The notes beneath the pieces were generated by a model. It was given only the letters and a program-made list of their open reading frames with translations. It was not told where the DNA came from and did not search any database. From assembly GCA_964531205.1 (NCBI GenBank), contig CAZHGH010000003.1, forward strand, positions 5,154 to 69,153: 64,000 nucleotides of DNA. Direction: 5' to 3'. Of the stretch, positions 59,009 to 59,464 are shown piece by piece. The DNA comes from an uncultured bacterium (lineage in GTDB: Bacteria; Vulcanimicrobiota; Vulcanimicrobiia; Vulcanimicrobiales; Vulcanimicrobiaceae). How positions within the stretch are numbered: the first letter of the stretch is position 1; every line of letters begins with the position of its first letter. The translations under genes and the position numbers were made by a program.

Positions 59009-59464
59009 ATGCTCGACATAGGCGCAAAGCTGCCGCGCGTCACCGTGCTCGATGATTCGGGTAAAACGGTCAACACCGCCGATCTTATCGGTAAGACGCT
59101 GGTTTTATGGTTTTATCCCAAAGACGACACACCCGGTTGAACGAACGAAGCGTCGCAGTTTCGCGACGCCTACGCACGTTTCAAGCGCAAAGGTGTTGAG
59201 ATCGTCGGTGTGAGCCGCGACTCGGTCGCCTCGCATCAAAAGTTCAAAGACAAGTATGACATTCCGTTCAAATTGATTTCGGACGTCGACTCGAAGCTGA
59301 GCGACGCGTTCGGAGTGATTGTCGAAAAGAATATGTACGGCAAGATCACGAAGGGCGTTCAGCGGTCGACGTTTCTCATCGATTCGTCCGGTAAGATTCT
59401 CAAGACTTGGCCCAAAGTGAAAGTCGAGGGCCATGCCGAGGAAGTCTACGACTCCTTGCCATGA
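59009..59464 (+). CDS. bcp: Bcp/PrxQ peroxiredoxin with in-frame TGA (59138-59140) at the peroxidatic-Cys position: candidate selenoprotein (or pseudogene)
   Basis: ORFs 58949..59140 and 59210..59464 share a frame with a single intervening stop. The joined product is colinear with Bcp: [13 protein letters not shown][TGA]-TNEASQFRD...VGVSRDS...FLIDSSGKI. Confidence 0.7.
59143..59181 (+). promoter_or_regulatory. SECIS-like stem-loop downstream of the in-frame UGA
   Basis: Upper stem GCGUCGC (59150-56) / GCGACGC (59163-69) with loop AGUUUC. Optional lower helix 59143-47 / 59177-81. Confidence 0.5.

Follow-up and report, generated by a model that had tools for sequence, protein, structure and literature searches.

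Selenocysteine (Sec)-containing peroxiredoxins have been described repeatedly. Catalogues by Zhang and co-workers count Prx (PF00578/COG1225 Bcp; motif TxxU or PxxxTxxU) as one of the bacterial selenoprotein families with an experimental foundation (PMC9312934 Table 1; PMC13188914 Table 1), with reference to Sohling et al. 2001, and Zhang et al. 2006 recorded 12 Sec-Prx genes and five Cys-to-Sec conversions (PMC1794560 Table 1). Here we analyze a putative member of this family encoded in a 64,000-nucleotide stretch, hereafter the window, of contig CAZHGH010000003.1 (assembly GCA_964531205.1), which originates from an uncultured bacterium of the phylum Eremiobacterota (Vulcanimicrobiota in GTDB). 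A first-pass annotation made from the letters of this DNA had noticed an in-frame TGA in a gene for a Bcp/PrxQ peroxiredoxin and, noting that Sec-containing peroxiredoxin-like proteins are known in bacteria, as the catalogues cited above do document, had considered a selenoprotein at least as plausible as a nonsense pseudogene. Orthologue, hairpin and selection data now strongly support that assessment, and we estimate at roughly 0.88 the probability that positions 59009-59464 represent a genuine Sec-encoding gene, with the UGA at 59138-59140 read as Sec and a functional thioredoxin-fold peroxidase of the Bcp/PrxQ type as its product.

The proposed coding sequence (59009..59464, + strand) comprises 151 sense codons, counting the UGA as Sec, and closes with a TGA at 59462-59464. 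Its frame contains a single internal stop, the in-frame TGA at 59138..59140 (+ strand; codon 44), which is all that separates the open reading frames (ORFs) 58949..59140 and 59210..59464; codons 59141-59209 are open, and the frame analysis thus agrees with the first description of the locus. Comparison with homologues, whose N-termini read MLxxGxKLP..., places the true start at ATG 59009, and the product obtained by reading through the TGA is colinear with those of 19 other TGA-bearing genes. Within the window, TGA terminates 15 of the 60 long ORFs (e.g. 10835..13636), and since it thus serves as an ordinary stop, a genome-wide reassignment of this codon is excluded. Three TGA-terminated genes had previously been cited to the same effect: the one ending at 13634-13636 (ORF 10835..13636) is sound, whereas the gene status of those ending at 15945-15947 and 42057-42059 is doubtful. 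On a crude ORF map, these last two TGA codons end frames of 263 and 267 codons, respectively, that overlap other long ORFs.

The window protein matches PF00578 (AhpC-TSA) over residues 4-130 (E 2.2e-37) and aligns at full length with Bcp structures in the PDB (best E 2.4e-44). In alignments with Bcp structures (5enu; Xanthomonas Bcp 5iph), the TGA falls in the column of the Cys of FYPKDxTPGCT, and a Cys is aligned with it in all 15 fetched homologues and in all four syntenic orthologues of the Cys type, so that homologues and structures concur with the original placement of the TGA at exactly the peroxidatic-Cys codon of a Bcp/PrxQ enzyme. The active-site motif PxxxTxxC/U is present as P-K-D-D-T-P-G-U, and its last four residues, T-P-G-U, together with the PF00578 domain correspond to the published definition of Prx selenoproteins (PF00578 plus TxxU). 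The Arg of QRSTFLID, which from established peroxiredoxin knowledge we take to be the catalytic Arg, aligns with ERSTFLID of 5enu. When Cys is substituted for Sec, the two best NCBIfam families are PrxQ NF053650 (164.7 bits, below the equivalog cut-off of 260) and Bcp NF006960 (130.7 bits, below the equivalog cut-off of 140); because both cut-offs are missed, the Bcp/PrxQ subfamily was assigned by best match and structural homologues, not by equivalog. The translated 151-residue product contains no Cys, including at the +5 resolving position, where Ser replaces the usual resolving Cys as had been reported. A resolving Cys as expected of the atypical 2-Cys type is found neither at +5 nor in helix alpha-3. 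Bcp enzymes of the 1-Cys type exist, and a resolving Cys is not required for membership of Bcp/PrxQ. As judged from its translation, the window protein is a thiol-free "1-Sec" peroxiredoxin.

The spread of such genes was surveyed by scanning one genome per species (GTDB) with a DNA pattern for YPKDDTPG followed by TGA. At least 120 exact matches were obtained, against a calculated chance expectation of about 0.3 matches in random sequence of the scanned size. Among the 120 matches listed, 116 continue in frame for at least 80 codons in a Bcp-like manner (T.EA..FRD...GVS.DS..SH.KF...), while the frames of the other four are seemingly cut off (L008, L033, L037, L064). The host groups among these listed matches include Deltaproteobacteria/Desulfobacterota (with Syntrophobacter and Geobacteraceae), Anaerolineae, Dehalococcoidia, Acidobacteriota, Gemmatimonadaceae, Planctomycetota, Binatia and Myxococcota, as well as two cultured Bacillota, Ferroacidibacillus organovorans SLC66 and Alicyclobacillus sp. 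SP_1. Nineteen of the listed genes are window-like, most of them labelled Eremiobacterota/Vulcanimicrobiota, with one labelled Dormibacterota and three only "bacterium". One Candidatus Binatia locus (L020, DATBLC010000002.1) harbors two Sec-Bcp paralogues about 4 kb apart, one of which reads FYPKDSTPG-UGA.

At the Eremiobacterota TGA loci, the gene order is that of the window: thiO-thiS-thiG-rhodanese-methyltransferase(-)-bcp-...-phosphoribosyltransferase(-)-SBP5 peptide-binding protein(-). The ThiG of the window shares 92% identity with its counterpart in the metagenome-assembled genome (MAG) CAZRQS01, and 75-86% with those in named Eremiobacterota/Vulcanimicrobiota MAGs. Four Cys-type orthologues fetched with their flanks (L242-L245) occupy the same locus and carry TGC or TGT at the codon in question. 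Since Cys and TGA genes share one syntenic locus, the alternation is between orthologues and not between paralogues; an alignment of orthologues, proposed at the outset as a check, thus did reveal Cys/TGA alternation, and at a single locus. Identity to the window protein ranges from 60 to 81% among TGA genes and from 67 to 72% among Cys orthologues. The Sec-Bcp proteins of Eremiobacterota fall into two length classes, one of about 151 residues (window, L011, L014, L039, L045, L056, L068, L084) and one of about 139 residues lacking the loop VIVEKNMYGKxxKGVQ (L005, L006, L010, L016, L017, L027, L060, L061, L097, L112), L079 being intermediate with 143 residues; all inspected Cys orthologues and homologues have 150-151 residues. 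Downstream of bcp, the window encodes a 59-residue acidic ORF without family (59494-59673, + strand), which is also predicted by the Logan gene caller, and at Cys-type Eremiobacterota loci a gene with a metallo-beta-lactamase fold directly follows bcp in its place.

Purifying selection acts on the codons past the TGA. Neither a second stop nor a frameshift occurs in the 20 TGA genes, that of the window included, and the ratio of nonsynonymous to synonymous differences (pN/pS), averaged over their 190 pairs, is 0.35 after the UGA versus 0.45 before it (pN after the UGA 0.25; pS 0.6-0.7, which is near saturation). Between the window gene and its nearest relative, L011, the values after the UGA are 0.10 for pN and 0.60 for pS, i.e. 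a ratio of 0.16. Such low ratios are not the behavior of a gene ending at codon 44, and of the additional disabling mutations that the first-pass annotation had named as a sign of a pseudogene, none was found in the TGA orthologues.

The TGA itself is present in an independent Logan assembly of SRR12266074, which is 100% identical to the window over 491 nt, TGA included. The Logan gene caller, applied to L001, predicts an 84-residue C-terminal fragment instead of the full gene. Because callers split the gene, close relatives of full length are missing from the best protein-database matches: the closest full-length homologues are all Cys forms with at most 74% identity, those named being labelled Eremiobacterota, Baltobacteraceae, Candidatus Aquilonibacter or Vulcanimicrobiaceae.

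Immediately 3' of the TGA lies a candidate upper stem-loop of a selenocysteine insertion sequence (SECIS) element (59150..59169, + strand; -12.3 to -13.3 kcal/mol), in which GCGTCGC (59150-59156) is perfectly paired with GCGACGC (59163-59169) around the loop AGUUUC (59157-59162). The 7-bp GC stem, its loop and its start 9 nt past the TGA are exactly as first described. The same description had likened the placement of the loop G-U to that of bacterial SECIS elements, and we accordingly ran the published bacterial SECIS (bSECIS) model, which specifies a loop of 3-9 nt with a G in its first two positions, a stem of 4-16 bp, a UGA-loop spacing of 16-37 nt and an energy of at most -7.5 kcal/mol (PMC13188914 Fig. 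2A). The window hairpin lies within these bounds on all four criteria, with a 6-nt loop (AGUUUC), a 7-bp stem, a spacing of 16 nt and an energy of -12.3 kcal/mol. Perfect stems of at least 7 bp with loops of 3-8 nt occur in the window at a density of 0.89 per kb, which corresponds to a probability of about 1.8% that any particular 20-nt span contains the start of one. On a single sequence the hairpin is suggestive only, and the case therefore rests on comparative evidence.

The 5' arm of the stem is formed by Ala-Ser-Gln codons and the 3' arm by Arg-Asp-Ala codons. Three of its seven pairs are fixed by the peptide, which made a control with Cys genes essential. In stem-forming UGA genes with the peptide TNEASQFRD, the codons are GCG UCG CAG UUY CGC GAC GCN and fold at -12 to -15 kcal/mol. 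In Cys orthologues encoding that peptide, Ser is coded by AGC or UCU, and Ala by GCC or Asp by GAU, with Leu or Met following RD; their best local folds reach -4.4 to -8.0 kcal/mol and the canonical hairpin is not formed. Compensatory synonymous changes are seen in three UGA genes (UCA/CGU in L056; GCA/GAU in L060 and L079). Over the 20 genes, 85.7% of the cells at the stem are paired, versus 16-49% when the 3' arm is slid, and the covariation score of 0.202, with three pairs changed on both sides, was equalled by 4 of 500 shuffles. When RNAalifold was applied to a subset of 14 genes, it returned exactly the same seven pairs. Conservation of the hairpin, another check suggested at the outset, thus came out in favor of a SECIS element, the structure being kept with compensatory changes in TGA genes and not formed by Cys orthologues. 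The lower helix suggested at the same time fared less well. It can be drawn, since GAACG at 59139-59143 or 59143-59147 may pair with CGUUU at 59177-59181 in the minimum free energy (MFE) fold of the single sequence (possible helix around the UGA, 59139..59181, + strand; pairs of 59143-59147/59177-59181: G-U, A-U, A-U, C-G, G-C), but it is absent from the RNAalifold consensus of the 14 relatives and is therefore treated as optional rather than conserved.

The contrast between UGA and Cys genes extends across phyla. With 112 Cys genes carrying the same motif, drawn from metagenomes, as controls, perfect stems were longer in the 116 UGA genes (6.0 versus 4.6 bp, p = 1e-12), folds were more stable (-12.5 versus -9.3 kcal/mol, p = 5e-7), and the strict bSECIS constraints, with no bulges allowed, were passed by 56 of the 116 UGA genes versus 5 of the 112 Cys genes (odds ratio 20, p = 4.5e-15). 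When peptide contexts were matched (TKEACGFR and others), MFE failed to distinguish Sec from Cys genes because the Cys genes fold into other, unrelated hairpins, whereas register-specific and criteria-based tests distinguished the two. The form of the hairpin varies between groups. Sec-Bcp genes of Gemmatimonadaceae have an added second hairpin, CCCUCG-GUU-CGAGGG, 37 nt past the UGA in PRFEG codons (L009, L012, L024, L051, L059, L065, L071, L087, L089, L093, L106 and others), and those of Acidobacteriota (L013, L023, L036, L047, L055 and others) show a shifted stem, GUUCG...CGAAC, with a loop of 8-10 nt.

Residues around the active site also differ between the two gene types. The position preceding FYPKDDTPG, 10 residues before the Sec (Trp in the window, 59108-59110), holds Trp (42), Phe (44) or Tyr (27) in most of the 116 UGA genes, and Tyr (103) or Phe (9) but never Trp in the 112 Cys genes (Fisher p = 6e-15, uncorrected for phylogeny). 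Trp is found there in each of the 20 Eremiobacterota Sec forms, and Tyr in all of the corresponding Cys forms seen. Ala follows RD (+10; 59168-59170 in the window) in 60 of the 116 Sec genes versus 20 of the 112 Cys genes; as the GC of this Ala codon closes the SECIS stem, the protein sequence appears to be adapted to the RNA structure.

Against a Sec-encoding gene, one may hold that TGC or TGT simply mutated to TGA in an ordinary Bcp and that the hairpin is a by-product of the EASQFRD codons. Such a nonsense pseudogene requires one substitution only, gene callers do split the gene (the 84-residue call on L001), four of the matches listed appear truncated, conserved Ser, Arg and Asp force three of the seven stem pairs, and no Sec machinery was detected in the window or the fetched loci. 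Further results count against the Sec reading: the 61-nt single-sequence fold is unremarkable (z = -1.35), covariation involves few counts (7 cells in 3 pairs), and the canonical 7-bp stem is missing in this register from 5-7 of the 20 Eremiobacterota UGA genes (L016, L039, L045, L068 and L084, and partly L005 and L017), so that the SECIS is not uniform in the phylum and any such element in these genes would take a different form. A decayed gene is nevertheless highly improbable when no fewer than 116 intact genes, spread over many phyla, have TGA at the same codon, when 20 syntenic Eremiobacterota genes carry it without a second lesion, when pN/pS past it is 0.16-0.35, and when compensatory synonymous changes maintain in TGA genes a hairpin that is not formed by Cys orthologues sharing the peptide. 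One may also suppose that 59140 was misread or misassembled and is really C or T, so that the residue is Cys. Such an error involves a single base in a source that is apparently metagenome-derived; its probability is nonetheless minute given the identical sequence in the Logan assembly, and given that all or most TGA relatives share the Trp at -10, the Ala at +10 and the codons of the hairpin, none of which is found in Cys orthologues. We consider both the pseudogene and the error to be effectively excluded.

That translation inserts some residue other than Sec at the UGA is likewise improbable, if less extremely so. Cys-recoding variants of UGA have been described, and one may envisage insertion of Cys by a tRNA-Sec-like tRNA-Cys(UCA)/SelB-type system, a Sec machinery that loads Cys at low selenium, or low-level Trp read-through after a recent loss of the machinery. 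Conservation of frame and hairpin indicates that the UGA is translated with SECIS-like help, which leaves the choice of residue to other arguments, and Sec machinery in this genome is only implied. Searches for it in the window and the fetched loci count against Sec decoding: within the 64-kb window, ARAGORN detected no tRNA (0) and Rfam no match at the gathering threshold, with noise only at E <= 10 on 59100-59260; neither SelA nor SelB was among the 25 displayed of the 74 Pfam families of 59 window ORFs, a display in which a weak SelD-type AIRS hit could be hidden; and neither tRNA-Sec nor SelD was detected by ARAGORN and tblastn in the window or the 245 loci, which amount to 1.6 Mb. The SelD query was the E. 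coli protein, which scores 619 bits against NF002098. On the other side, the UGA lies exactly where Sec replaces Cys in a known selenoprotein family, many of the matches come from groups that include documented Sec users (Deltaproteobacteria, Syntrophobacter), and recoding UGA to Cys is unparsimonious where TGC would serve.

A second selenoprotein gene was also sought. In the window, open frames flanking a TGA gave Bcp alone; the gaps at 20.1-20.6 kb and 24.5-25.5 kb contain an acetyltransferase-like ORF and a putative alcohol dehydrogenase, named by eye, that the greedy ORF map had missed. Across all loci, a blastp search for Cys/TGA pairs produced off-frame noise and the Sec-Bcp paralogue of L020.

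In bacteria, Sec is decoded by SelB-GTP-Sec-tRNA(Sec) acting on the SECIS in competition with release factor 2 (PMC9312934). By analogy, the apical G-U loop of the hairpin at 59150-59169, which sits within the codons A-S-Q-F-R-D-A of the active-site helix, would bind SelB-GTP-Sec-tRNA(Sec) when translation has advanced to the UGA, which precedes the stem by 9 nt, and insertion of Sec would then outcompete release factor 2. In the resulting enzyme, the selenolate would attack the peroxide to yield a selenenic acid. As there is no Cys at +5 or in helix alpha-3, recycling would have to come directly from an external thiol reductant, e.g. thioredoxin, in a 1-Cys-type or "1-Sec" mechanism. SelB binding, selenium incorporation and the identity of the reductant are what we infer from analogous systems.

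In terms of annotation, the locus should be described as one selenoprotein gene and not as two fragments or a pseudogene, all the more usefully as no full-length Sec form is found among the best protein-database matches. A Sec-encoding bcp implies a Sec-decoding machinery and a selenium requirement, both in this genome and in those of about 20 related species. General knowledge of selenoproteins is unchanged by this gene, but the Cys/Sec alternation at a fixed locus offers a clean example of a Cys-to-Sec conversion reshaping codon choice and neighboring residues. Eremiobacterota are a largely aerobic phylum of soil and peat. We tentatively raise the possibility, to which we give less than even odds, that they constitute a Sec-decoding phylum in which a single conserved bcp locus is switched between Cys and Sec, with co-adaptation in the form of Tyr-to-Trp replacement, the post-RD Ala and a thiol-free active site. 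If so, they would provide a natural system for studying a SECIS built from active-site codons and the requirements of Sec for its protein context. In the literature, we found no link between Eremiobacterota or WPS-2 and selenocysteine.

Comparison with the described systems defines what is familiar and what is new at this locus. With the catalogued Sec-Prx family, the window protein shares the domain, the motif P-K-D-D-T-P-G-U and the Sec at the peroxidatic position; Cys orthologues are common in that family and Cys-to-Sec conversions repeated, and the syntenic locus of the window behaves alike. The +5 resolving Cys, present in 61 of the 116 sampled Sec genes, is absent from the window protein. 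The experimental founder, PrxU of Eubacterium acidaminophilum (NF040737), is thioredoxin-dependent and likewise has Sec at the peroxidatic position, but its model, which spans 233 positions versus 151 residues here, gives only 52.7 bits with the window protein where 270 are required; on sequence grounds, the window protein belongs to a different Prx subfamily and is not an orthologue of PrxU. Among Cys enzymes, Burkholderia 5enu (E 2.4e-44) and Xanthomonas campestris Bcp 3gkk/5iiz (E 1e-36) align over the full length and share FYPKDxTPG[C]T and RSTF(L/V)I, with a peroxidatic Cys where the window protein has its predicted Sec. The resolving Cys of Xanthomonas Bcp presumably lies in helix alpha-3, at a position taken by Asp or Lys in the window protein. 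As for the RNA element, an in-ORF stem-loop immediately 3' of the UGA is common to the window gene and to the E. coli fdhF SECIS and bSECISearch consensus, whereas the window hairpin has no sequence similarity to these and no evident bulged U; its spacing of 16 nt is at the short limit of the bSECIS model, and other phyla with the same Sec-Bcp have hairpin registers that differ from its own. Catalogued Sec-Prx examples come from Deltaproteobacteria, Clostridia and Symbiobacterium, mostly anaerobes, whereas the window gene comes from Eremiobacterota. The gene is a further example of an already known Sec-Prx family, and the phylum is the new element.

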